A DNA stretch of 64,000 nt from Patescibacteria group bacterium (GCA_022710645.1 JAKLGL010000001.1:407296-471295), one strand, 5' to 3'. Shown: positions 20,713 to 63,531, counted from the stretch's first letter. Numbers and translations: made by a program. Notes: a model not told the origin generated them from the letters alone.

Positions 20713-21696
20713 ATGTCCAAAAAACGCATTTTTTCAGGGGTTCAACCGACTAACAATATTCATATCGGCAATTATTTTGGCGCTATTAAAAACTGGGTGG
20801 ATGTGCAAGATCAGTTTGATTGTATTTTTTCCGTAGTGGATTTGCACGCTATCACTGTTTATCAAAAACCGGAAGATTTGAGACAAAATATCCTCAAAAT
20901 CGCCAAAACCTATTTGGCTTTGGGTATCAATCCGAAAAAATGTCTCATTTTCCAACAATCGGATGTCAAAGAACATGCTGAACTTTGTTGGATTTTGAAC
21001 TCTATCGCCAAAATGGGCGAATTGGAACGCATGACACAATATAAAGACAAATCCGCTTCTCATCCGGAAAATATCAATGTCGGACTTTTTGACTATCCCG
21101 TGCTCATGGCTGCTGATATTTTACTTTACAACACACAGGCTGTGCCGGTCGGCGAAGATCAAAAACAACATTTGGAACTTGCTCGTGATTTAGCAATACG
21201 TTTCAATAGTTTATACGGAGAGACATTTATTGTCCCTGAACCCATGATCAAAAAAGAAGGGTGCCGAATAATGGGATTGGATAATCCTTACAAAAAAATG
21301 AGTAAATCCGCACCTTCTTCTTACAATTATATTTCTCTACTTGATTCACCGGAGGAAGCCAAGAAAAAAATTATGAAAGCCGTGACCGACTCCGGCAGTG
21401 AAATCAAATTTGATACGGAAAAACCGGCACTTTGTAATTTGCTGACTATCTATTCCCAACTTAGCGGTGAAATTATCAGTAACATCGTAGAAAAATATAC
21501 CGGTCGCGGATATGGTGATTTCAAAAAAGATTTGTCCGAACTGGTTGCTAATTTCTTGGTTGATTTTCAGAAAAAATTCAATGCGATTTCCGATGAAGAA
21601 GTACAGGAACTACTCGTCAAAGGTGCAAAAAAAGCTCGCAAAATCGCGGAAAAGAAAATGGAAGAGGTAAAAGAAAAAATTGGGATAAAAATCTAA
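20713..21696 (+). CDS. trpS: Tryptophan--tRNA ligase
   Basis: HIGH-type NNIHIGNY, KMSKS, and the length fit trpS. Confidence 0.9.
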   Translation: MSKKRIFSGVQPTNNIHIGNYFGAIKNWVDVQDQFDCIFSVVDLHAITVYQKPEDLRQNILKIAKTYLALGINPKKCLIFQQSDVKEHAELCWILNSIAKMGELERMTQYKDKSASHPENINVGLFDYPVLMAADILLYNTQAVPVGEDQKQHLELARDLAIRFNSLYGETFIVPEPMIKKEGCRIMGLDNPYKKMSKSAPSSYNYISLLDSPEEAKKKIMKAVTDSGSEIKFDTEKPALCNLLTIYSQLSGEIISNIVEKYTGRGYGDFKKDLSELVANFLVDFQKKFNAISDEEVQELLVKGAKKARKIAEKKMEEVKEKIGIKI

Positions 21697-22263
21697 ATGA
21701 ACAAAAAAATTATTGTCATTTTAATTCTCTTTTTATCAGCGGTGTTTTTATCCGTCTTTATTGTCATTTCTATCAACAAAAAACCACCGACTGCTCCCAA
21801 ACCTCTAATCACTAATTTACTTACTATGCAAATCGCTTCTCCTGAATTCAAAAATAACGAAACTATTCCGGGTAAATTCACTTGCGACGGACTCAATATC
21901 AATCCGGAATTAAAAATTTACGGCATTCCTGATAATACTGTGAGTTTAGCAGTGATTTTGGACGACCCGGATTCTGTCGGTGGCGATTGGCTACATTGGG
22001 CTGTGTGGAATATAGATCCCAAAACCGAAACTATTTCCGAAAATTCCGTGCCTGTTGGTACAAATGTCGGCAAAAATGATTTTGGCGAAAATAAATACGG
22101 CGGTCCCTGCCCCGGTTCCGGAACGCATCGTTATTTCTTTCACCTTTACGCCTTGGATACTGTTTTGAATATTCCGGAAAACTCCACTAAAGCGGATTTA
22201 TTGAAAGCTATGGAGGGACATTTGATTGCAGAGACGGAATTGATGGGGGTTTACAGTAGATAA
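21697..22263 (+). CDS. YbhB/YbcL-family PEBP (Raf kinase inhibitor-like) protein
   Basis: Signal/TM peptide, DDPDSVGGDWLHWAVWNI and GPCPGSGTHRYFFHLYALD. Confidence 0.8.
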   Translation: MNKKIIVILILFLSAVFLSVFIVISINKKPPTAPKPLITNLLTMQIASPEFKNNETIPGKFTCDGLNINPELKIYGIPDNTVSLAVILDDPDSVGGDWLHWAVWNIDPKTETISENSVPVGTNVGKNDFGENKYGGPCPGSGTHRYFFHLYALDTVLNIPENSTKADLLKAMEGHLIAETELMGVYSR

Positions 22264-22340
22264 AAGTTCGTAAAATATACTAGTTTAGATGTTAAATACA
22301 AAATATTTCATAAACGTTTCAATTATTAACTTAATAGGCT

Positions 22341-22733
22341 ATGAAAATCGATATAGAAAATATTGCCAAAGAAAAAGGTGGTGTTATTGCAGACAAAATT
22401 TTTGAAAAATATGGAGAAAATCCTGTAATAGAACATGATTCATTCTGGGGTGGTTTTCTAGAGGGTCTTTTAGGCGGCAATGGATACTCACGTTTCAAAG
22501 TTGAAAAAGAAGTTTATCAAAGATGTTTACAGGAAACCAATGCCTTTTTTATAAATAATAGTGATGCAAAATTTGATTTTGATGAAGAAATAATTGAAAT
22601 TTTAAAAGACCATCTTCAAACAAAATTACAAGATCCAAAAGTTGTAAAAAAAATGACAACCGAAGATATGTTTGCGCACCTCATCAAGATTTATGTAAAA
22701 GATTTTTTACTTGAAAAAGGTCTTGTCCTCTAA
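22341..22733 (+). CDS. Hypothetical protein (first gene of the AT-rich accessory islet)
   Basis: 130 aa, no recognisable motif; it sits in an AT-rich block with the HEPN-like genes. Confidence 0.5.
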   Translation: MKIDIENIAKEKGGVIADKIFEKYGENPVIEHDSFWGGFLEGLLGGNGYSRFKVEKEVYQRCLQETNAFFINNSDAKFDFDEEIIEILKDHLQTKLQDPKVVKKMTTEDMFAHLIKIYVKDFLLEKGLVL

Positions 22734-22786
22734 TAATTGAGAAAAACATACATATCAAATGACACGGGATAAACAATTCACTAAAT

Positions 22787-23323
22787 ATGAACCCAAAGAA
22801 AACAATATATGATTTAGTGGCTGAATTATCAGATTACCAAAATATAGAAGATAAAACGCTTCCATTGTTAAAATCCTTTTTATATTCAGAACACTTCGCC
22901 GTGCAGTTATGTAAAGAAAATGGTATTAAAACAACCACCCTGAATAAATGTAAAAATTGTGGACATATTACTGATACCAGGCTACTCTCATTAAGTGAAA
23001 TAATAACTAAATTGATAGAAGAAAAAGTTATCAGTCAAGATTCTTTTGAAATATTTAATCTATTGAATAAACTTCGCAATAGATTAATTCATGATATTTC
23101 ACCTGATACACAAAAAATCATTGAGTGGATTGGAAACTTTGATCCACCAACTAATTCGGCAGTAAAAGATTTACTAAAAAAAGCAAACTCATGGCTTCGT
23201 TTTTATCTCTGTCTTATACCCGCGATTGCTACTTTATACGGAAAAACCAAGGATGCTCAGATTCAATTAGATTCGGTAGAATATAACACTCTGACTAGGA
23301 ATTGGATTTTTCACTTTAAATAG
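22787..23323 (+). CDS. HEPN-like (Rx4H) protein, Abi/DUF4145-like putative RNase
   Basis: LNKLRNRLIHDIS carries the R-x4-H HEPN signature inside a predicted helical protein; it also has a CKNCGH pair. Confidence 0.45.
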   Translation: MNPKKTIYDLVAELSDYQNIEDKTLPLLKSFLYSEHFAVQLCKENGIKTTTLNKCKNCGHITDTRLLSLSEIITKLIEEKVISQDSFEIFNLLNKLRNRLIHDISPDTQKIIEWIGNFDPPTNSAVKDLLKKANSWLRFYLCLIPAIATLYGKTKDAQIQLDSVEYNTLTRNWIFHFK

Positions 23324-23506
23324 ATACTTATACTCTACTCATCCAAATTATTCCTTTATTCCAGTAACGTGCTTCGCACAATTCTATTGCCTTCATTTTG
23401 TCACAACTTTTGATTGCCAAAACGGATTGATGGAAAATTATACTAAATAAAGTCGTAAAATAGGAAATTGGATAAATAATTAGTTTTAATTTTTAGGTTT
23501 AATATT

Positions 23507-24064
23507 ATGGATATCAAGGATATAGTTGATCAATATAACACAGGTTCTTTTTTGAAATTCCATTGTGCAATGGAAGATGCGGCATTTAAGGAAATTTTGA
23601 ATAATTATGACAAAAAAAATTATATTTGTTCAGCATGTGGAGCATGTATGTTATTTGAAAAAATATTTAGTACTTTTCTCGCCCGTCATTGTGCCTTTCC
23701 TCCTAATTTCAAACCTGCAAAAAATAATCTCGTCTCTCAACTAAAATATTTAAAAACAACACAAAATGAAATAGATAGTGGTAAGGAAAATCACGGTTTG
23801 TCATTCAAAGAAATCACTCAAAAACTAACTGATCATAAATTTATTTCTAATAAAGAAAAAATTGACTATAATAATTTTTATGACAGATATAGAAATCCTA
23901 TCGCACATGGCTTACAGTCACGTTTATACAAAGATATCTTCGGAGAACCAAATAATACATTTCAAATGGATGTGAGGTACGAGGAAATTTATAAAAAACT
24001 TTCAGAAATTGTCATTGAAAAAATATATAATATAATGTTTTATAAAAAATTATTGAAAACGTAG
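23507..24064 (+). CDS. HEPN-like (Rx4H) protein, second copy
   Basis: YDRYRNPIAHGLQS carries R-x4-H; it also has CSACGACM. It is followed by a terminator (gacgc-ctaacca-gcgtc then T7). Confidence 0.45.
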   Translation: MDIKDIVDQYNTGSFLKFHCAMEDAAFKEILNNYDKKNYICSACGACMLFEKIFSTFLARHCAFPPNFKPAKNNLVSQLKYLKTTQNEIDSGKENHGLSFKEITQKLTDHKFISNKEKIDYNNFYDRYRNPIAHGLQSRLYKDIFGEPNNTFQMDVRYEEIYKKLSEIVIEKIYNIMFYKKLLKT

Positions 24065-24209
24065 GAAAACATCTTTGAAATTATGTGGACCGGTGCAGTT
24101 ATCCAAATTTAAAAATCAAATAAAACAAAAAGACGCCTAACCAGCGTCTTTTTTTGAAATAAAAAAGCAGACTTTGTTCGGTCTGCCGGCGAAAAAATAA
24201 CTGATTTAA

Positions 24210-24740
24210 TTAAATCGGAGGTGCGGCACTATCAGAAACATACAATACCGTTTCTTTTGATGCCATTTCTATTTCGACTTTAACCTGGAATTTCTTTTCC
24301 AGATCGACTGCGATTTTTTTCGCTTTCGGAAGAAACTTTTCTCCGAAAACCTCCAATCTCCAATTGGAGTCTCGCGATATTCCTTGGTAAAAATAGAGGT
24401 TAGCGATACGAACTTCCACTTTTTTACTTTCTCTTATTATCCAGAGAAATACCAGCGACACACTCACAAAGAAAAACAAACCAACAACAATACCATTTTT
24501 GATCCCGATAAGACAGTAAAAAAAGAACAAAAATAATGTTCCTCCACAGAGCGGCCATTTGATAAACGGCTTTACGTCGTCAAATTTCAGTTTGCCCTGC
24601 TCTGAATAAATGATTCCGATCTCGTTTTTTGCATGTAAAAATTTTTCGTCTTTTTTGGCCTCAGCCAGGAAATATCCTTCACGAGACAAAAAAGACGACA
24701 CCCTTCTGATTAACCCTGTTGTTTTTTCTAAATCTTTCAT
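24210..24740 (-). CDS. Membrane protein of unknown function
   Basis: AAGGAGAGG RBS upstream of MKDLEK, so the ORF-track N-terminus is probably an extension. Two TM helices. It has its own terminator (gcagac-cgaacaaa-gtctgc then T6) on the minus strand. Confidence 0.6.
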   Translation of the reverse strand: MKDLEKTTGLIRRVSSFLSREGYFLAEAKKDEKFLHAKNEIGIIYSEQGKLKFDDVKPFIKWPLCGGTLFLFFFYCLIGIKNGIVVGLFFFVSVSLVFLWIIRESKKVEVRIANLYFYQGISRDSNWRLEVFGEKFLPKAKKIAVDLEKKFQVKVEIEMASKETVLYVSDSAAPPI

Positions 24741-24892
24741 TTTCCTCTCCTTATTGAAAAAATGTAAAAGTGCGATAGTAGTATAAAATAATATATTCAC
24801 ACCGTCTTGTCAATTTTTGTATTAATATGATGATAAATGAAAATAAAAAAACCACCATATAGCGGGTGGCGCGCTGAACTTTGAGGTTTATT

Positions 24893-52687: not shown

Positions 52688-55600
52688 TTATTTTTTAAAA
52701 CCTGTACCGGCCGGAATGAGACGACCGATGATAACGTTTTCTTTGAGACCTTCCAAATAATCAATTTTACCGGTAATCGCGGTATTGATAAGAACGCGAG
52801 CGGTTTCTTGAAAAGAAGCTGAGGAAAGAAAACTTTGTGTAGATAAAGAAACACGAGAAATACCCAATAACAATTCTCTAGCTGTTGCTTCTTTACCGCC
52901 TTCTTTTTTGGCTTGGTTATTGCAAAATTCCAAATGAGCTTTTTCTACAACTTCACCCGGTAAAAGCTCGGTGTCACCGGCATCTTCCACATATACACGA
53001 CTAAACATTTGACGAATAATAACTTCCATATGTTTATCGTTAACTTTCTGACCTTGAGAAGAATAGATATTTTGCACTTCTTCCAAAATATACTTTTGCA
53101 CCGCAGGACGTCCTTTAAGTTCGAACAATTCTTGTAAATGAATAGAACCATCGGTTAGTTGGTCGCCTTTTAGCACTTCATCTCCGGTTTTTACATACAA
53201 TTTATAACCTAGCGGCACGATATATTCGCGAACACGCGGTCCGTTGTACGATAAACGAATTTTGTTTTTTTCTATTTTTACTTGTCCGGCATATTTGGCT
53301 TTAATTTCTTCACCGGAAGAACCGCGAACCACTAATACCGTATCCTGTTCCACTATTTCGTCATTTTTTACCATAACTTCATCTTCACTTCCTGTGCTGA
53401 TTTTCATTTCATCCATACCTTCAAAATGGACTTTGATGATTTTTTGTCCGCGACGACCTTCAAAAATCTTTTTTCCCGTAGGAGAAGTGATGATTTTTCC
53501 ATCCGCATCTTCAATTTCCACTTTGCCTTCTACATCGGTAAGCAAAGCTTGATGTTTCGGAGTGCGTACTTCAAAAATTTCTTCGATACGAGGCAAACCT
53601 TGAGTAATATCAGACCCTGCCACACCACCGGTATGGAAAGTACGAAGTGTCAACTGGGTACCAGGTTCACCGATACTTTGAGCGGCAATAATACCGACCG
53701 AAGCGCCAAGCTCTGCGGGTTTATTATAAGATAAATCATATCCGTAACATTTTTGACAAACACCTTTTGGACATTTGCACTTGAAAACCGAACGAACATG
53801 GATAGATTCTACTTTATTTTTATCTATTTCACGAGCGGATTTTTCATCAATAACCTCTCCGGCTTTTACAATCACTTTATTGCCGATTTTTACATCTTCC
53901 ACTACATAACGACCGACAACTCTATCTGCTAATTTTTCACCCATTTCCGCTGATTGAGCCAAAGTAAATACTTCGCCCTCTTTAGCCCCGCAATCTTCTT
54001 CCAACACTACTACGTCTTGAGCCACATCCACCAAACGACGAGTCAAATAGCCGGCGCCAGATGTACGCAAAGCAGTATCGGACAAACCTTTACGAGTACC
54101 GTGAGAAGAAATAAAGTATTCCAAAGAGTCAAAACCTTCCTTAAAGTTTCCTTTTACCGGAAGTTCAATAATGTCGCCAGACGGAGAAGCAACCAAACCT
54201 TTCATACCGATAACCTGACCCAACTGTCCCCAAGAACCGCGAGCGCCTGATTCAATCATAGCATAAACCGGGCCTTCTTTATCCAAAGCCTCTCTGACAT
54301 TGGTAGAAATGATTTTATCTTTTACTTCAGTCCAAATTTCCAATATCTTGGCATGTTTTTCACCTTGAGTGAGCAAACCTTCGTTGCGTAAATTTTCAAC
54401 TTCGCGAACTTTGGCATCACTTTCTTTGAGCAAAGCCGTTTTCTCTTCTATTTTCGGAAAGTTATTCATACTCAAAGAATATCCGGATTTGGTTGCGTAT
54501 TTGAAACCAAGATTTTTCAAATCATCCAAAAAAGCGGCAGTTTTTTCTTGACCGTAAATTTCCAAATAAGAAGAGATAATTCCTCCGAGTTTTTTAACAG
54601 TTATAACATCGTTTACAAAATTAATTTCATCCGGCAACACTTCGTTGAAAATAATACGTCCAATGGTTGTTTCCATCAACGGAGTGGTTCCTTCCAGAAA
54701 TTTCTTCATATCTGTAAAACGCACTTTTATTTTTTCATGCAAAGTTATGATACGTGACTTGTAAGCAAACAAAGCTTCTTTTTCAGATGAAAAATAACGC
54801 ATGTTTTTATTTTCTCTGTTTTCACGAAGATGTGTCAAATAAAAACAGCCAAGCACAATATCTTGTTTCGGAGTTACAACCGGTTGTCCGGTAGCGGGTT
54901 TCAAAATATTTTTCTCTGCAGCCATCAAATTGTCCGCTTCCCAACGAGCTTCCACGGTAAGCGGTAAATGCACAGCCATTTGATCGCCATCAAAGTCGGC
55001 ATTAAAAGCGGTACAAACCAAAGGATGTAATTGAATAGCACTACCTTCGATAAGACGAGGGTGGAAAGCTTGAATACCCAAACGGTGCAAGGTCGGAGCG
55101 CGATTAAGCAATACACGGGTTTTTTTGGTTAATTCTTCCAATATATCCCAAACTTCATCACGTTCACTTTCTATAAAACGATTGGCGGAACGAACATTGT
55201 GAGCCAATTCCATTTTAATAATTTCCGCCATTATAAACGGTTTAAATAATTCCAAAGCCATTCTTTTTGGTAAACCGCATTCATCCAAATTCAAATTCGG
55301 ACCGACAACGATAACCGAACGACCGGAATAATCCACACGTTTACCGAGTAAATTTTGACGGAAACGTCCTTGTTTACCTTTCAAGATATCAGCCAAGGAG
55401 CGCAATTGTCTTTTTTGACCGGTAGAAGCAGTCACGGTTTTGGCATGACGAGCATTATTATCAATAAGCGCATCAACAGCTTCTTGTAACATACGTTTTT
55501 CATTTCTGCAGATAACTTCCGGAGCATTTAATTCTAACAACCTTTCCAAACGATTATTACGATTAATAACGCGACGATACAAATCGTTCAAATCCGAAGT

Positions 55601-56563
55601 TGCAAAACGACCTCCATCAAGAGCGACCATCGGACGTAAATCAGGAGGAACGACAGGTAAACATTTCATAATCATCCATTCCGGACGAATATTGTTGACG
55701 ATTAAATTTTTCAACAATTTTTTGCGACGAATAATTTTTTCCAATTTTGCGCCTTTGGCTGTTTGTTGTTCTTGACTTAAAGTTTTATAAGTTTCTTCCA
55801 AGTTTACACGAGAAAGTAAATTATAAACTCCTTCAGCGCCGATTTGCGCTTCAAACAAATGACCGTAACGCAAAGAAAGTTCTTGATATTTTTGTTCAGA
55901 GATAATACGCAACAAAGTCAATTCTTTGAGTTCTTTGTCAGCTTGTTGAAAATCTGATTCCAGGGCTGACATTTTGCGAGTACCTTCTTCTTGAATTTTT
56001 TCCAGAATTTCGGCTTTTTGTTTTTCGTCATTGGCCTTTTTGATAGCGACTTCTGTTTCTTTTTCGATTTGTTTTTTCTTTGATTTATATTCTTGACGCA
56101 ACAAATCAAAAGTTTGTTTTTTACCTTCATCATCCACGTGCGTAATGACAAAAGAAGCAAAATAAACCACTTTTTCCAAAGCTTGAGGACTCAAATCTAA
56201 CACCAAACCAACTTTACTCGGAACCGATCTCAAAAACCAAATATGAGTAACCGGAGTGGCTAATTCTATATGTCCCATGCGTTCGCGACGAACCAAAGAA
56301 GTTGTAACTTCGACTCCGCATTTATCACAAACAATTCCTTTATAACGAATCTTTTTATATTTTCCACAGTAACATTCCCAATCTTTGGTAGGTCCAAAAA
56401 TTTCTTCGGCAAACAAACCGCCTTTTTCCGGTTTTTGAGTACGATAATTAATGGTTTCCGGTTTGCGCACTTCGCCGTGCGACCAGCTGCGAATAGCTTC
56501 CGGAGAAGCGATTTTCAGACGAATCGCGTCAAAGTCGATGACATTGGTGGTATTGCGATACAT
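52688..56563 (-). CDS. rpoC: DNA-directed RNA polymerase subunit beta'
   Basis: Zn-binding CGVEV..., NADFDGDQM, 1291 aa. Confidence 0.97.
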   Translation of the reverse strand: MYRNTTNVIDFDAIRLKIASPEAIRSWSHGEVRKPETINYRTQKPEKGGLFAEEIFGPTKDWECYCGKYKKIRYKGIVCDKCGVEVTTSLVRRERMGHIELATPVTHIWFLRSVPSKVGLVLDLSPQALEKVVYFASFVITHVDDEGKKQTFDLLRQEYKSKKKQIEKETEVAIKKANDEKQKAEILEKIQEEGTRKMSALESDFQQADKELKELTLLRIISEQKYQELSLRYGHLFEAQIGAEGVYNLLSRVNLEETYKTLSQEQQTAKGAKLEKIIRRKKLLKNLIVNNIRPEWMIMKCLPVVPPDLRPMVALDGGRFATSDLNDLYRRVINRNNRLERLLELNAPEVICRNEKRMLQEAVDALIDNNARHAKTVTASTGQKRQLRSLADILKGKQGRFRQNLLGKRVDYSGRSVIVVGPNLNLDECGLPKRMALELFKPFIMAEIIKMELAHNVRSANRFIESERDEVWDILEELTKKTRVLLNRAPTLHRLGIQAFHPRLIEGSAIQLHPLVCTAFNADFDGDQMAVHLPLTVEARWEADNLMAAEKNILKPATGQPVVTPKQDIVLGCFYLTHLRENRENKNMRYFSSEKEALFAYKSRIITLHEKIKVRFTDMKKFLEGTTPLMETTIGRIIFNEVLPDEINFVNDVITVKKLGGIISSYLEIYGQEKTAAFLDDLKNLGFKYATKSGYSLSMNNFPKIEEKTALLKESDAKVREVENLRNEGLLTQGEKHAKILEIWTEVKDKIISTNVREALDKEGPVYAMIESGARGSWGQLGQVIGMKGLVASPSGDIIELPVKGNFKEGFDSLEYFISSHGTRKGLSDTALRTSGAGYLTRRLVDVAQDVVVLEEDCGAKEGEVFTLAQSAEMGEKLADRVVGRYVVEDVKIGNKVIVKAGEVIDEKSAREIDKNKVESIHVRSVFKCKCPKGVCQKCYGYDLSYNKPAELGASVGIIAAQSIGEPGTQLTLRTFHTGGVAGSDITQGLPRIEEIFEVRTPKHQALLTDVEGKVEIEDADGKIITSPTGKKIFEGRRGQKIIKVHFEGMDEMKISTGSEDEVMVKNDEIVEQDTVLVVRGSSGEEIKAKYAGQVKIEKNKIRLSYNGPRVREYIVPLGYKLYVKTGDEVLKGDQLTDGSIHLQELFELKGRPAVQKYILEEVQNIYSSQGQKVNDKHMEVIIRQMFSRVYVEDAGDTELLPGEVVEKAHLEFCNNQAKKEGGKEATARELLLGISRVSLSTQSFLSSASFQETARVLINTAITGKIDYLEGLKENVIIGRLIPAGTGFKK

Positions 56564-56592: not shown

Positions 56593-59500
56593 TTAGGCTT
56601 CCTTAGCAGTAGTATCAATCATTCCTTCCGGATTTTCTTCTTTATTGGAATTTGCCGGAGGATTAAACAAAGAAGTTTCTTCGACTTTTTCGTAAACGCC
56701 ATTTTTATTTTTGAGAAGTTCCACATCCAAACCTAACCCTTTCAATTCGCGAACCAACACATTAAAAGATTCCGGGGTATTCACAGCTTTGATTTCTTCG
56801 CCTTTGATGATAGCTTCGTAAGCTTTACTGCGTCCCGGCACATCATCGGATTTGATAGTTAACATTTCTTGCAACATATGTGCGGCACCATAAGCTTCCA
56901 ATGCCCAAACTTCCATTTCACCAAATCTTTGACCACCGGATTGAGCGCGACCGCCGAGAGGTTGTTGAGTAATCAAGCTGTACGGGCCGATAGAACGTTG
57001 ATGAATTTTATCTTGTACCATATGGTTAAGTTTCAACATATAGTTGTAACCTACCGTAACTTTATTATCAAAAGCTTCACCTGTACGACCGTCGTATAAC
57101 ACCGATTGACCGTCAACTGCAAATCCATTTTTAACCAATGCATCATGAATTTGATCTTCGGTAATACCGTTAAAAGAAGGAGTCGCTACTTTAATACCCA
57201 TAGAATTTGCGGCTAAACCCATATGATTTTCCAAAATTTGTCCGAGGTTCATACGAGAAATAACACCGAGCGGAGACAAAATAATATCTACCGGAGTTCC
57301 GTCTTCCAAAAACGGCATATCTTCGGCCGGAACTACGCGAGAAATAACACCTTTGTTACCATGGCGACCGGACATTTTATCTCCGATTTGAACTTTGCGC
57401 ATATCGGCCACACGCACACGAACTCTCTTTATAACACCCGGTTCAAGTTTATCGCCATTTTCCGCGGAAAATACTTTGATATCGATAACTTTACCATGTT
57501 CACCATGTTCCAAATATAAAGATGAATCACGAACATCGCGAGCTTTTTCACCGAAAATAGCGCGAAGAAGTCTTTCTTCAGCTGATAATTCAGTTTCGCC
57601 TTTCGGGGTTATTTTTCCAACCAAAATATCTCCGGATTTAACTTTAGCTCCGATACGAACAATTCCTTCACTATCCAAATTTTTTAATTTTTCTTCGGAA
57701 ACATTCGGAATATCGGCAGTAACAACTTCAGGTCCGAGTTTTGTTTCACGAACATCTACAAAATAATCTTCAATATGTATGGAAGTATAACGATCTTTTT
57801 TAACCAAACGATCGGAAATTATAACAGCATCTTCATAATTGAAACCGTCCCAAATCATATAAGCCACCAAAACATTTTGACCGAGTGATAACTCGTTTTC
57901 ACTTATGGAAGGACCGTCTGTCAAAGCTTGTCCTTTTTTTACTTTATCACCGACAGTTACCACCGGATGTTGGTTGATACAAGTAGAATGATTTGATCTT
58001 TGAAATTTCCTCAAAACATAATTTATTTTGTCGCCTTTTTTGGTGGTTAATTCTATTTTATCTCCGGAAACTGCGGTAATTTCGCCGTCGTTTTCAGCAT
58101 AAAAAACATAACCTGAATTACGTGCCGCATCTTTTTCTACACCCGAACCAACTAACGGCGGTTCCGGTTTGATACAAGGAACGGCTTGACGTTGCATGTT
58201 TGTTCCCATGAGCGCGCGAGTGGCGTCATCGTGTTCCAAAAACGGAACGCAGGCGGTCGCAACGGAAATAATTTGAGCGGACGATACGTCTATATAATCT
58301 ATATTTTCAGCTTCGGTAACTTGAGGTTTGCCATAAACACGAGCGGAAACCAATATGTCTGTAAAGTAGCCGTTTTCATCAACTTTGGTAGTAGCCGGAG
58401 CGGTTACGGCTTTTTCTTCTTTGAAAGAATTTAATAAAACTATTTCATTGGTAACTCTAGGTTTAACCGGAACGATTTTTTCTTTACTTTTTGCCAACTT
58501 AGCGGCAATTTCTTTGGTAATTTTTGTTCCGTCTTTATATCCTTCCATTTCACCTCGTAAAATTTCACCTTCAGTCAAAGTCGGATCATTGGTCACTTCT
58601 TTGAGAACTTTACGATAAGGAGTTTCTATAAAACCAAACTCATTAACTCGTGCAAAACAAGAAAGATGGTTAACCAAACCAATGTTCGGACCTTCCGGAG
58701 TGGCAATCGGACAAATACGACCGTAATGGGTGTTGTGAACGTCGCGAACCTCAAAACCTGCCCTATCACGAGATAAGCCACCCGGACCGAGAGCAGACAA
58801 ACGACGTTTATGCTCCAATTCAGCCAAAGCGTTTGTTTGATCCATGAACTGAGAAAGTTGAGAGCTCATGAAAAATTCTTTTACCGCAGAAATAACCGGA
58901 CGAGCATTAACCAGTTTATTCGGAGTCAATTGTTCCGCTTCATAAGTACTCATACGATCGCGAATAATACGTTCCATACGAGCCAAACCGACACGTAATC
59001 TGTTTTGAACCAATTCACCTACAGCGCGAATACGTCGATTACCAAGATGGTCGATATCATCAGCTTCATCTTGAGTTACATTGAGACGAATAACTTCTTT
59101 GACCACCAAAGCCAATTTTTCCGGAGAAAAAACTCTGTTTTCTTTTTTACCATAATCTTCATAATTCAAACTCAAATCGAATTTAGTATCGAATTTATAA
59201 ACACCGACCGGAGATAAATCATAACGATCAAAATTAAAAAACATGGCATGAATCAAGCTTTTGGCATTATCGGCAGTAGCCAAATCTCCCGGACGAATTT
59301 TTTTATAAACTTCAATAAGACCTTCATCGGCATTATGCGCCAAATCTTTTTTCAAAGTATTTTCAACAAAATTAATATTCGGATGAATATTTACATCTTT
59401 GAAAAGTTCGATAATCTGTTCGTCGGTTTCATAACCGAAAGCACGAAGCAAAGAAGTAACGGCAACTTTTCTTTTGCGATCTATTTTCACCCACAAAACA

Positions 59501-60033
59501 TTATTTTGATCTGTTTCAATTTCAAGCCAAGCTCCGCGATTCGGAATAATTTTGGCTCCGTAATAACGACGACCGCGAACATTTTCCGCAGAAAAATAAA
59601 CACCCGCACTTCTGATAAGTTGAGAAACAACAACTCTTTCTATGCCGTTAACTACAAAAGTTCCACGATTGGTCATTACCGGGAAATCTCCGAGATAAAT
59701 TTCTTGTGTCTTACTAACGTTAGTAGTTTTATTGGTTAATCTTACTTGCACACGAAGAGGGGCTTCATATGTCATATCTCTATCGCGACAAGTCATCTCA
59801 TCAAATTTCGGTTCATCCAAATAATAATCTTCAAAATACAATTCTAAATTACGATCGGAAAAATCGGTAATCGGAGAAACTTCTTCAAAAAGTTCTTTAA
59901 TGCCAAATTTTAAAAACCAATCGTAAGAATTTTTTTGCACTTCTATCAAATCCGGAAACGGAACCGCATCGCGACTGGAAGTTAGATACTTGCGTTCCGG
60001 ATCAATCTTATAATTTCTTTTATAAATAGGCAT
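56593..60033 (-). CDS. rpoB: DNA-directed RNA polymerase subunit beta
   Basis: Conserved beta-subunit blocks throughout, 1146 aa, directly upstream of rpoC. Confidence 0.97.
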   Translation of the reverse strand: MPIYKRNYKIDPERKYLTSSRDAVPFPDLIEVQKNSYDWFLKFGIKELFEEVSPITDFSDRNLELYFEDYYLDEPKFDEMTCRDRDMTYEAPLRVQVRLTNKTTNVSKTQEIYLGDFPVMTNRGTFVVNGIERVVVSQLIRSAGVYFSAENVRGRRYYGAKIIPNRGAWLEIETDQNNVLWVKIDRKRKVAVTSLLRAFGYETDEQIIELFKDVNIHPNINFVENTLKKDLAHNADEGLIEVYKKIRPGDLATADNAKSLIHAMFFNFDRYDLSPVGVYKFDTKFDLSLNYEDYGKKENRVFSPEKLALVVKEVIRLNVTQDEADDIDHLGNRRIRAVGELVQNRLRVGLARMERIIRDRMSTYEAEQLTPNKLVNARPVISAVKEFFMSSQLSQFMDQTNALAELEHKRRLSALGPGGLSRDRAGFEVRDVHNTHYGRICPIATPEGPNIGLVNHLSCFARVNEFGFIETPYRKVLKEVTNDPTLTEGEILRGEMEGYKDGTKITKEIAAKLAKSKEKIVPVKPRVTNEIVLLNSFKEEKAVTAPATTKVDENGYFTDILVSARVYGKPQVTEAENIDYIDVSSAQIISVATACVPFLEHDDATRALMGTNMQRQAVPCIKPEPPLVGSGVEKDAARNSGYVFYAENDGEITAVSGDKIELTTKKGDKINYVLRKFQRSNHSTCINQHPVVTVGDKVKKGQALTDGPSISENELSLGQNVLVAYMIWDGFNYEDAVIISDRLVKKDRYTSIHIEDYFVDVRETKLGPEVVTADIPNVSEEKLKNLDSEGIVRIGAKVKSGDILVGKITPKGETELSAEERLLRAIFGEKARDVRDSSLYLEHGEHGKVIDIKVFSAENGDKLEPGVIKRVRVRVADMRKVQIGDKMSGRHGNKGVISRVVPAEDMPFLEDGTPVDIILSPLGVISRMNLGQILENHMGLAANSMGIKVATPSFNGITEDQIHDALVKNGFAVDGQSVLYDGRTGEAFDNKVTVGYNYMLKLNHMVQDKIHQRSIGPYSLITQQPLGGRAQSGGQRFGEMEVWALEAYGAAHMLQEMLTIKSDDVPGRSKAYEAIIKGEEIKAVNTPESFNVLVRELKGLGLDVELLKNKNGVYEKVEETSLFNPPANSNKEENPEGMIDTTAKEA

Positions 60034-60216
60034 AAAATTTTTATAAAAATTTTAATTATTTTTTTAAATTGATTATTTTTTTAAAAATTAACTTTTAGAC
60101 AACAAAAAATAGCCCTTTTTGTGGGAATTAAATTTTTTTTCTTATTTTTTAGCGAAAAGCAAGGTTAACATGCAATATTTTTTTACCTTGCGCGCAGCTT
60201 AAATTTTTATTGAAAA

Positions 60217-60575
60217 TTTAGCCACGCTCTTTTGGCTAATATTAGCCAAAAATAAAAAGATGATAACTTGATGGAGTCATTATAAAGCAAAAAAGTGTTT
60301 TTGTCAAGAGAAAACTGAATTTTATATATTTGTCAAGAATAAAGGAAATTGCTGTTAATTTATACAAAAAAACGACATTTATACACAGTTTATCCACAGG
60401 TCCATGTCTCAACATAAAGTCTGGAAGTAACCATGCAAAGCAAGATTACTAAATTAAAACAATTTTTGGCTAAATTAAGAGAAAAAAAGATATTTTTTAT
60501 TTTTTATGCTATTTTAGCCAAAAATCATACTTTTTTAGTATATTTAAAAATTTAGCTAATTTAAGCTAAAAATTC
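60217..60575. promoter_or_regulatory. Array of TTAGCCAAAAA / TTTTTGGCTAA inverted repeats in the rpoB upstream region
   Basis: ttagcca-N9-tggctaa (60219-60240) and attagccaaaaat (60241-60253). tttttggctaaa (60463-60474) faces tttagccaaaaa (60513-60524) as a perfect 12-bp inverted repeat. tttagct-N6-agctaaa (60550-60570). Confidence 0.45.
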
Positions 60576-60885
60576 ATTTTATCCCCAGACACAATTGACA
60601 CTGTGCACAAGTACTCGTAAAATATCCAATAATATTTTTGATTTTGTCTTTGATAAGCTGCGGAAAAGCTGATGTCTCAACCGGATCGAATACTTTGAAA
60701 CAAAACTCTCTCCTCCCCTCAACAATTATTTTTATATTTTGTTTTGGGGATGTTTTAAAGCACTGATCCGTAAGTTAATACATGCATCTTTTCCCGCAGC
60801 TTAGCGAAGATAAAATAATTTTTAAAAAACATATTTATCCCCTTTCAGGGGAGTTTTTTTTATGCTATAATAACCAAAGAATTTT

Positions 60886-63531
60886 ATGGTCAAAAAAAGA
60901 CTAAGACCTCAAGAAGAATTTGATTTTAATCCGGAAATCAGCCGCGGTTTGTTGGCTTTGTTTTTGTTTGCTTTGGCGGCTATTTCAATTTTAAGCTTCT
61001 TTGGTTTAGCCGGAGTAGCCGGTAACTTTTTAGATTCTTTATTAGCTATCGGTTTCGGATATATCAAATATTTATTCCCTCTCGTACTTCTTTTTATCGG
61101 AATTTTACTTACCAAAAATTTTGACGATGAATTTAAGTGGCCTAAAATTTTAGGAGCTCTTTTATTCTTTTTATCCATAAACTCTTTTGTTCATTTGCAA
61201 TTATCTCCACAAGAAATGTTTGATTCGGCTATGCAAGGTTACGGCGGAGGTCTTTATGGATTTTGGTTAGCTTGGATATTAGGTTCTTATGTGGGATATT
61301 GGGGAGGTTTCGTTATTCTTTTGGCGATTTTTATTGTTGCTTTGATTTTTATTTTAAATACCACTTTATCGGATTTGGTTTTATTCGGACATAAATTGTT
61401 TGGTTGGTTTTTATCTCCCATCACTCAGCTTTTTTCCAACAAACCAAAACAAGAACAGATAAAATTCAGTATCAAAGGCGCGCATGCCAAATTTAATAAC
61501 GAAGAAGAGGAAGTCGATGAAGAAGATGAAGAGGAAGATAAAAGTTTCGAAGAAGCGGTGGAAGAAATGAAAAGCAAAGAAAAAAGAGTTTTTGAAAGAA
61601 AAACTGTATCTATCGAAGAAACTGACGAAGAAAAAAATAAAAAGCCGGAAAATTCAGAACCTAAACCGGAAATCATTTTGAGCAAGCCCTCCGCCAATTA
61701 CAGACTACCAAGTGTTGATTTGCTCTATAACAACAAAAGCAAACCTACTTCCGGAGATATAAAAAGTAACGCTGAAATTATCAAAGATACTTTTTTCAAT
61801 TTCGGAATAGAAGTTGAGATGGGGGAAGTTCGCGTAGGACCTACTGTTACTCAATATTCTCTCAAACCGGCCAAAGGCATAAAACTTTCTCGCATTACAA
61901 CTCTAAGTAATGATCTTTCTCTTTCTTTAGCCGCTCATCCGATAAGAATAGAAGCTCCTATTCCGGGAAAAGCTTTGGTTGGCATTGAAGTTCCCAATCA
62001 AAAAGTCGCCATGGTTTCTTTGCGAGAAATTTTGGAATCTCCGGAATATAAAGCTCGCAAACATAATATGATGTTTGCTTTAGGTAAAGATGTTGGTGGT
62101 AAAGTTTGGTTTGCCGATTTGCCAAAAATGCCTCATTTATTAATCGCTGGTACTACTGGTTCTGGTAAAACCGTTTGTGTTAATACTTTAATTTTAAGTC
62201 TTTTATATCAAAATTCCCCGGAAACTTTACGTTTTATTATGGTTGATCCAAAGCGCGTCGAGTTGACTCTTTATAACGGAATTCCTCATCTTTTAACTCC
62301 GGTCATAACCGATCCGGCCAAAACCGTAGCCGCCCTCAAATGGACTATTGGTGAAATGGAAAGACGTTTTGATGCTTTGGCCGCAGCCGGTAATCGAGAT
62401 ATTACTTCTTATAATAGTACTCATAAAGAAAAAATGCCTTATATAGTTTTTGTTGTTGATGAATTGGCAGATCTGATGGCTATGGCCGCTTCCGAAGTGG
62501 AAGCGGGAATTATTCGTATAGCCCAAATGGCTCGCGCGGTCGGAATTCATTTGGTAGTCGCCACTCAAAGACCGTCTGTGGATGTCATTACCGGTTTGAT
62601 GAAAGCCAATATTCCGGCTCGTATAGCTTTTTCCGTAGCTTCTTCCATAGATTCTCGTACTATTTTGGATTCTCCTGGCGCGGAAAAATTACTTGGACGC
62701 GGCGATATGTTATTTTTAACCGCCGAACTTTCAAAACCTTTACGTATTCAAGGGGCTTTTGTTTCTGAAGAAGAAATGAAAAGAGTTGTTGAACATATAA
62801 AAACAGACACTATTCCTCAATATGATGAAAGTATCGTTTCTAAAGCCGGAAATGTAGGAGGAACTTCTTCTATGTTTGGAGGAGGAACTGATGATCGCGA
62901 TGATTTATTTAATGAAGCGAGAGCTATTGTAGTTGAATCTGGTAAAGCCAGCGCTTCTCTTTTGCAAAGAAGATTAAAAGTCGGTTATGCTCGCGCCGCT
63001 CGTTTGCTTGACGAGATGGAAGAAGCTGGTATAGTAGGTCCTGCCGATGGAGCAAAACCCAGAGAAGTATTTACCGATCATCTGATGCCTGAACCTGAAG
63101 CTGAAATCCCTCTTTCCGAACAAAGAATGGGTGCTGGTGGAACTGTTTTTACTCCTCCCAAACCTTATACCTCTATTGATGAAGAAAGCGAAGAAGAAGC
63201 GGAATCACTCACCGAACAAAGTGAAGGTGACGGAGATAAAACTTTGGAAGAAATAGTTGAAGAAGAAGAATTCAGTACCGAACAAAGTTCTAATACCGAG
63301 GAATCGAAAGAAGAAAACGAAGAAGAGGTTGAAAATGAAATTCAAGAAAAACAATCAACAGAAGATAATCAAGAAGACGAAAAAATAGAACTTGAAATAG
63401 TAGAAATGGAAACGGAAGTTGAACCCGAAAAGGAAGAAGAACACCTTCCAGAAGAAAATTCCGATACTGAAGAAAAATCTAAAAAATCGAAAAAGACAAA
63501 AAAAGACGATGAATATATAAGTATTTTCTAA
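60886..63531 (+). CDS. ftsK: DNA translocase FtsK/SpoIIIE with an unusual ~170-aa acidic C-terminal tail
   Basis: N-terminal TMs, Walker A GTTGSGKTV, and a gamma domain (ASASLLQRRLKVGYARAARLLDEMEEAGIVGP). These are followed by an E/D/K-rich low-complexity extension. Confidence 0.93.
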   Translation: MVKKRLRPQEEFDFNPEISRGLLALFLFALAAISILSFFGLAGVAGNFLDSLLAIGFGYIKYLFPLVLLFIGILLTKNFDDEFKWPKILGALLFFLSINSFVHLQLSPQEMFDSAMQGYGGGLYGFWLAWILGSYVGYWGGFVILLAIFIVALIFILNTTLSDLVLFGHKLFGWFLSPITQLFSNKPKQEQIKFSIKGAHAKFNNEEEEVDEEDEEEDKSFEEAVEEMKSKEKRVFERKTVSIEETDEEKNKKPENSEPKPEIILSKPSANYRLPSVDLLYNNKSKPTSGDIKSNAEIIKDTFFNFGIEVEMGEVRVGPTVTQYSLKPAKGIKLSRITTLSNDLSLSLAAHPIRIEAPIPGKALVGIEVPNQKVAMVSLREILESPEYKARKHNMMFALGKDVGGKVWFADLPKMPHLLIAGTTGSGKTVCVNTLILSLLYQNSPETLRFIMVDPKRVELTLYNGIPHLLTPVITDPAKTVAALKWTIGEMERRFDALAAAGNRDITSYNSTHKEKMPYIVFVVDELADLMAMAASEVEAGIIRIAQMARAVGIHLVVATQRPSVDVITGLMKANIPARIAFSVASSIDSRTILDSPGAEKLLGRGDMLFLTAELSKPLRIQGAFVSEEEMKRVVEHIKTDTIPQYDESIVSKAGNVGGTSSMFGGGTDDRDDLFNEARAIVVESGKASASLLQRRLKVGYARAARLLDEMEEAGIVGPADGAKPREVFTDHLMPEPEAEIPLSEQRMGAGGTVFTPPKPYTSIDEESEEEAESLTEQSEGDGDKTLEEIVEEEEFSTEQSSNTEESKEENEEEVENEIQEKQSTEDNQEDEKIELEIVEMETEVEPEKEEEHLPEENSDTEEKSKKSKKTKKDDEYISIF

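Follow-up and report, generated by a model that had tools for sequence, protein, structure and literature searches.

The 64,000-nucleotide stretch of DNA analysed here (GCA_022710645.1, JAKLGL010000001.1:407296-471295; hereafter the window) comes from a Patescibacteria group bacterium and contains an AT-rich islet of three small genes on one strand, g1, g2 and g3 (Table 1). Their products, P5230_02045, P5230_02050 and P5230_02055, are all deposited as hypothetical proteins of Candidatus Magasanikbacteria (Patescibacteria), from a metagenome-assembled genome (MAG). g2 and g3 each encode an arginine-histidine motif of the Rx4H type, as found in the HEPN superfamily. The window has 69 open reading frames (ORFs) with 100 aa or more (20,305 aa in all), and among these the pattern R[NHQD]xxxH occurred three times, every time in g2 or g3; the adjacency of the motifs is therefore beyond chance. 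An earlier note on this DNA had described three same-strand ORFs between trpS-PEBP and a minus-strand membrane gene, in distinctly AT-rich DNA with a terminator of their own, and had pointed to LRNRLIHD in g2 and YRNPIAHG in g3 as HEPN signatures in similar contexts. The genes, the base composition, the terminator and both motifs were found in place.

Table 1. Features of the islet and its immediate flanks; positions are counted from the first nucleotide of the window.
Feature	Coordinates	Strand	Remarks
Islet	22264..24209	.	accessory, compositionally foreign; bounded by the PEBP gene and the minus-strand membrane gene
g1	22341..22733	+	130 aa, soluble; P5230_02045
g2	22787..23323	+	178 aa; P5230_02050
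g2 Rx4H motif (R97 N R L I H102; LRNRLIHD)	23075..23092	+	R, N, L and H invariant in the family alignment
g2-g3 spacer	23324..23506	+	183 nt
g3	23507..24064	+	185 aa; P5230_02055
g3 Rx4H motif (R129 N P I A H134; YRNPIAHG)	23891..23908	+	R and H invariant in 18 family members
Intrinsic terminator	24127..24157	+	hairpin 24127-24153 plus U-run; palindromic, usable from either strand
trpS	20713-21696		upstream flank; PF00579, 2e-77
PEBP-family gene	21697-22263		upstream flank; PF01161, 5e-37
Membrane gene	24210-24800	minus	ORF with a hydrophobic segment

The G+C content (GC) of the islet was 0.289, the minimum among all 1.95-kb windows of the 64 kb (mean 0.361, standard deviation 0.022). At third codon positions, GC was 0.19-0.25 in g1, g2 and g3, compared with 0.37-0.39 in trpS, the PEBP-family gene, the membrane gene and rplA. 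The latter lies farther downstream, as do genes for a dCMP deaminase, a kinase-like P-loop protein and a CYTH protein. Insertion signatures were looked for at the islet, but it was not flanked by direct or inverted repeats, and neither a tRNA nor an integrase was present. The identical arrangement was found on seven contigs from independent samples, and no sister strain without the islet was found in the collection when sought via 90% clusters of the flanking proteins. Elsewhere in the window, the second most AT-rich 2-kb bin (60001-62000) had a GC of 0.315; positions 60034-60885 contained no ORF of at least 150 aa and adjoined very large minus-strand ORFs (52688-56563 and 56593-60033).

The genes are separated by gaps of 53 nt (g1-g2) and 183 nt (g2-g3), and because of the latter g2 and g3 are not tightly coupled. 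Promoter-like sites were detected in the g2-g3 spacer at 23414-23441 and 23499-23526, and the spacer probably carries a promoter of g3's own. It gave no indication of a structured RNA (fold z-score +0.63, no Rfam match). The terminator after g3, a hairpin followed by U7 (ΔG −11.2 kcal/mol, z −5.4), is the only one for the islet. A second hairpin (24166-24187) serves the convergent minus-strand gene.

Sequence families and structure models of g2 and g3

Four relatives of g2 were recovered in a word-index search, at 61-64% identity; the family is very rare. In the alignment of the five sequences, E35 and R97-N98-x-L100-x-H102 were invariant. Against Pfam, the best two of eight weak matches of g2 were HEPN models, HepT-like (E 1.4e-3; 18.8 bits, cut-off 23.5) and DUF4145 (E 8e-3; 16.6 bits, cut-off 23.1). 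PADLOC gave matches to DUF3644 (E about 1e-3) and CARF_HEPN (E about 2e-3), for which there is no curated cut-off, and NCBIfam gave one to HepT_toxin (E 0.02; 14.7 bits, cut-off 60). These matches, all of them sub-threshold, centred on residues about 27-127. Both PADLOC matches were seen again in three further family members (4/4 tested), one relative touched the C-terminal HEPN region of Cas13b, and one relative carried a YutE/DUF86 family label from the Joint Genome Institute (JGI). DUF86, DUF4145 and DUF3644 are classed as HEPN families (PMC3710099).

Two other features of g2 were inspected. Near the C terminus (23285-23320, residues 167-178), W173-I-F-H-F177 was invariant across the family; a second RNxxxH (R171-H176) is found here, of which the relatives do not keep R171. 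A reading of the CxxC of g2 (C55, C58) as a zinc ribbon was rejected, two relatives being without it.

The word-index search with g3 recovered only g3 itself. In contrast, 37 cluster representatives came out of an exhaustive HMMER search, of which 22 had E<=1e-10. Most were 180-190 aa in length, whereas a few highly repetitive, very long proteins among the matches look like compositional artefacts; about 30 of the cluster representatives are genuine. In an alignment of 18 sequences with 21-42% identity, E51, F100, Y125, R129 and H134 were invariant. The arginine and the histidine of the motif were thus invariant in both families (5 and 18 sequences), clearly contrary to the lack of conservation that would have refuted the HEPN reading of the earlier note. 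Searches of g3 family members against Pfam and PADLOC gave no meaningful family match, and g3 itself had none in NCBIfam either; one relative matched NCBIfam HepT_toxin at E 0.055.

The AlphaFold (AF2) model of g3 was confident, with a predicted local distance difference test score (pLDDT) of 90.9 and a predicted template modelling score (pTM) of 0.86. It consisted of helices 21-35 and 39-61 (containing E51), an inserted helical element (72-109), a helix 115-134 ending in R129-H134, and a last helical part (137-179). In HEPN domains as described in PMC3710099, helix 2 contains an acidic residue, a variable insert separates it from helix 3, and Rx4-6H is located where helix 3 is distorted towards its C terminus; the helix order of the g3 model is suggestive of this layout. 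Foldseek searches of PDB and BFVD with the g3 model returned no significant match. Among the top 50 PDB matches, individually non-significant, 18 were HEPN proteins from seven distinct entries: HepT, the 7ae6 toxin, AbiV, AF0298, TM0613 (TMt 0.53), PaREP1/SsR10 and 4nqf. Profile searches of the g2 and g3 families against PDB sequences found no HEPN chain and nothing else of relevance.

Comparison of the two family profiles with hhalign gave E 4.5e-4 (probability 33%) over 88 columns, from the acidic-residue helix to Rx4H and with the motifs in register. Control comparisons of either family with the g1 family gave E 0.26-0.36 over 10-14 columns. Based on this difference, g2 and g3 are plausibly remote homologues.

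On two related metagenome contigs, a single reading frame for a protein of 441-442 aa (L016:502-1830 and L017:260-1585) joined a g3-like domain to an N-terminal domain that is unrelated and about 250 aa long. The N-terminal domain contained LRNSLH(N/G)NG(I/V)H and had no Pfam match and one sub-threshold match to CARF_HEPN (1.3e-3), so that the fusion may be a single-chain protein with two HEPN domains. On L016, an AAA_23/AAA_15 ATPase gene was located about 670 nt downstream of it. A Rosetta-stone link between g2 and g3 through these fusions was rejected, since hhalign gave no alignment of the N-terminal domain with the g2 family (probability 0.5%).

Genomic contexts and distribution of the relatives

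We compared 29 loci with relatives from other organisms, next to three that were the islet itself from independent samples (L030-L032). When searched with all three proteins by tblastn, no locus in the set of 29 contained relatives of more than one of g1, g2 and g3. An all-against-all comparison of neighbours at the g3 loci found nothing shared except between near-identical contig pairs, and the g1 loci had no neighbour common to their contexts. As their relatives never co-occur in the 29 loci, g1, g2 and g3 are, on the available evidence, not a conserved unit but an accidental neighbourhood. The three-gene defence or toxin-antitoxin module proposed by the earlier note thereby lost its basis, together with the role of cognate antitoxin or sensor that had been suggested for g1.

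The g1 family comprised 17 relatives with 45-78% identity and a mean column identity of 79%, and is a small family restricted to Patescibacteria. It had no consistent Pfam or PADLOC match and matched no antitoxin or MNT family; an assignment of g1 to JAB (PADLOC, E 1.2e-3) was rejected, the match being found in only 1 of 16 family members. The family occurred in eight further contexts with different neighbours in each, and in none of these was a neighbour of similar size HEPN-like, nor did one carry R[NHDQ]x3-5H. Among the neighbours were several tyrosine integrases, a serine recombinase together with a terminase-like gene, and a KAP NTPase; relatives near integrases, the serine recombinase or the KAP NTPase were on L008, L010, L012, L024, L026 and L027. 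Contigs frequently ended just past g1 relatives. Judging from these contexts, the family may mark the edge of integrative elements or of strain-variable regions in Magasanikbacteria. As a small conserved protein unrelated to g2 and g3, and not a partner of either, g1 accompanies integrase-associated variable regions.

Relatives of g2 were found behind unrelated genes. In one lineage the relative followed a gene for a 125-aa membrane protein and preceded one for a 284-aa HNH effector-like protein (PADLOC 1e-22). In another lineage it followed a KTSC-domain protein gene, with a Fic protein encoded two genes on. Directly downstream of a g2 relative, at L001:5693-6547, PADLOC matches to HNH-endonuclease effector models, namely PDC-M68A (1e-22) and an effector of the cyclic-oligonucleotide-based antiphage signalling system (CBASS) type (2e-17), were recorded, with no Pfam match.

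Relatives of g3 were present in Nitrospirota, in a lineage with recoded TGA and on an archaeal-looking contig, and had no conserved partner anywhere. One adjoined a peptidase gene, one followed genes for three small membrane proteins, and one lay between genes for proteins of 1262 aa and 305 aa of unknown function. On four contigs (L019, L020, L021 and L023), g3-family proteins were 67-80% identical, while the GC of the contigs was 0.37, 0.57, 0.40 and 0.42, respectively. Such similarity across this GC range suggests recent transfer between very different genomes. Together with the TGA-recoded and the archaeal-looking contigs, it points to horizontal movement among distantly related lineages, a pattern typical of toxin and defence genes. 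Conflict-type neighbours of the relatives included the HNH effector-like protein, Fic, the AAA_23/AAA_15 ATPase and the KAP NTPase. In tblastn searches of phage genomes with g1, g2 and g3 and of plasmids with g3, nothing was found, a lone match in Bacillus phage G (E 0.5) being rejected as noise, and IMG/VR viral contigs likewise contained no member of the three families.

Two g3 relatives had unusual reading frames. The relative at L015:3862-4371 contained five in-frame TGA codons, which correspond to tryptophan in the database protein P0032; TGA is therefore a sense codon in the organism it comes from, as in genetic code 4 or 25. The contig (GC 0.30) is labelled as part of a Saprospiraceae MAG and was probably mis-binned. 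On the near-identical contigs L021 and L022, the g3 relative (L021:1163-1696 and L022:419-952) contained one in-frame TAG at the same position, and L021 also encodes an archaeal-type pilin-like N-terminus. This gene is either a pseudogene or its TAG is read through, for example as pyrrolysine.

Predicted function and alternative explanations

With moderate confidence, we favour the explanation that the locus is a foreign accessory islet with two independently acquired, stand-alone HEPN-like proteins, predicted RNases of the toxin or abortive-infection type, next to the unrelated g1. g2 and g3 would be divergent members of the HEPN superfamily, from two different uncurated families. By analogy with characterised HEPN proteins, both would act as homodimers whose paired Rx4H motifs make up a metal-independent endoribonuclease site. 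The dimerisation step is modelled on the canonical HEPN dimer reported for AbiV. Catalysis would depend on the arginine and histidine of Rx4H, probably aided by the upstream glutamate, and on activation the proteins would cut cellular or phage RNA. Each may thus act alone as a toxin or as an abortive-infection-type effector, similar in size and autonomy to the single-gene Abi HEPN proteins.

The likeness to the HEPN superfamily lies in the invariant Rx4H, the asparagine after the arginine and the conserved acidic residue in an upstream helix. The g3 model is all-alpha and is suggestive of the HEPN four-helix up-down core, in which an insert parts core helices two and three and the motif is at the C-terminal end of helix three. 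HEPN families also share with g2 and g3 a patchy distribution shaped by horizontal transfer, and conflict-type neighbours in some relatives. In contrast to typical members, both proteins lack the canonical Ex3[KR] spacing, and neither reached a curated threshold: no significant profile match to an established HEPN family was obtained with g2 or g3, all matches being below the curated cut-offs. The HEPN reading of the earlier note was partly supported, by the invariant motifs, the in-register alignment of the two families, the weak HEPN matches of g2 and the HEPN-like helix order of g3, whereas the thresholds of Abi_2, DUF4145 and HepT were not reached.

HepT of the HepT/MntA type VII toxin-antitoxin system (DUF86) is among the nearest known systems. 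It gave the best Pfam and NCBIfam matches of g2, centred on the Rx4H helix, and HepT chains were the commonest HEPN proteins among the Foldseek matches of g3, one relative of which matches HepT_toxin. However, the scores of g2 were far under the Pfam and NCBIfam thresholds, no MNT nucleotidyltransferase is encoded in or beside the islet, and g2 and g3 are 45-55 aa longer than HepT. The tyrosine in the RX4HXY motif of HepT is the residue that is AMPylated by MntA. It is missing from both proteins, g2 reading RNRLIH-D-I and g3 RNPIAH-G-L.

DUF4145 and Abi_2 proteins (AbiD, AbiF) resemble g2 and g3 in being encoded by single genes and in having an RNxxxH-type motif. The likeness extends to a DUF4145 match for g2, 16.6 bits where 23.1 are required; there was no Abi_2 match, and g3 matched neither family. 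AbiV of Lactococcus is a HEPN RNase of ~200 aa that forms a canonical HEPN dimer and is neutralised by RNA from an upstream element of ~180 bp (bioRxiv 10.1101/2024.05.05.592566). g3 is similar to it in size, in having no protein partner and in its upstream non-coding region of ~180 nt, and had weak structural matches to AbiV (9bj7). It differs from AbiV in having no detectable sequence similarity and in a leader that has no structure signal and whose length is not conserved among relatives. No threshold applied places g2 or g3 within HepT/DUF86, DUF4145, Abi_2 or AbiV. By analogy, they appear to come closest to HEPN toxins or to Abi proteins of the HEPN type that are encoded by single genes, and would be uncurated new additions to a known kind.

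Several observations weigh against the favoured explanation. The AF2 model of g2, built from an alignment of five sequences, was poor (pLDDT 60), and Foldseek with this low-confidence model returned only noise. With regard to the structure prediction proposed in the earlier note, the g3 model places Rx4H at the C-terminal end of helix 115-134, whereas the g2 model is too poor to show where its motif lies, and for g2 we infer a HEPN fold. In the g3 family, the residue following R129 alternates between asparagine (as in g3 itself) and isoleucine, the latter in about half of the members. The genes surrounding the islet are housekeeping genes and the window is not a defence island, nor did related loci show the neighbourhood conservation that the earlier note proposed to look for. 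Likewise, several g3 relatives lie between housekeeping genes; in two Nitrospirota contigs the gene is solo, in front of pepF and behind differing upstream genes. With three distinct contexts known for the g2 family, the absence of a g2 partner is only weakly established. Finally, a free-standing toxic RNase without a visible inhibitor would need an explanation. The HEPN reading of g2 and g3 is thus plausible but unproven.

The first alternative, which we consider unlikely, is that g2 and g3 are not active RNases but either non-HEPN helical proteins in which R and H occur by chance, or binding or regulatory proteins of HEPN fold without a conflict function. It would agree with the absence of matches above curated thresholds and of any significant fold match, with the housekeeping flanks in the window and in the Nitrospirota loci, with the lack of a visible inhibitor gene, and with isoleucine standing in many g3 relatives where the residue following R is usually polar. 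It does not account for R and H never varying among sequences of 21-42% identity, for the acidic residue conserved upstream of them, or for HEPN models being the best of the weak matches. The patchy, cross-domain and horizontally transferred distribution and the anomalous composition also speak against it.

Somewhat less probable still is a heterodimeric paired-HEPN nuclease, to which g2 and g3 would contribute one Rx4H each to form a composite site, like the two HEPN domains in the single chain of Cas13. The genes are neighbours on the same strand and share one terminator, located past g3, their families are plausibly remote homologues, and the fusion of a g3-like domain with a CARF_HEPN-touching domain makes a second HEPN-like partner conceivable. 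However, relatives of the two never co-occur elsewhere and most g3 relatives are solo, and a spacer with promoter-like sites separates the genes. Moreover, the N-terminal domain of the fusions is not alignable to g2, and its motif spacing (Rx3H/Rx8H) is non-canonical. We attach a similarly small, slightly lower chance to a broader idea: that g3 stands for an undescribed family of autonomous HEPN RNases which need no protein antitoxin and move between bacteria and archaea, here perhaps paired with g2 as a two-protein composite nuclease, of which the fusions would be the single-chain equivalent.

An operon of the toxin-antitoxin or abortive-infection type, in which g1 would be the antitoxin or sensor of two HEPN toxins, is very improbable. 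The common strand, the low GC, the one terminator and the stability of the arrangement on the seven contigs of this organism would fit it. Against it, g1 relatives occur in eight other contexts without a HEPN-like neighbour of comparable size, the genes upstream of g2 relatives are unrelated, and g1 is neither an MNT nucleotidyltransferase nor a match to an antitoxin family. There is also no sign of co-evolution, since conservation is far higher in g1 than in g2 or g3. Equally hard to credit is an AbiV-like type III system with g3 silenced by a non-coding RNA from the 183-nt region upstream, for which the length of this leader and the AbiV chains among the weak Foldseek matches would speak, but against which stand the fold z-score and absent Rfam match of the spacer, upstream spacers of 18 nt to >300 nt in the relatives (in two loci the domain is even fused to the upstream ORF) and the lack of detectable sequence similarity to AbiV.

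Since the three genes are an accidental neighbourhood, a toxicity assay built on g1 as the antitoxin would probably be uninformative. The g3 family, which has no entry in Pfam, NCBIfam or PADLOC, is rare, partner-less and cross-domain (Nitrospirota, a recoded lineage and probably archaea), and is the point worth following. Should g3 be an active RNase, the question arises how a stand-alone HEPN toxin is kept silent. If g3 did prove to be autonomous and here paired with g2, it would be a minimal effector of innate immunity in bacteria for which very few defence systems are recognised. Patescibacteria have tiny genomes in which few defence systems have been recognised, and candidate immune or toxin genes such as g2 and g3 are therefore worth recording.

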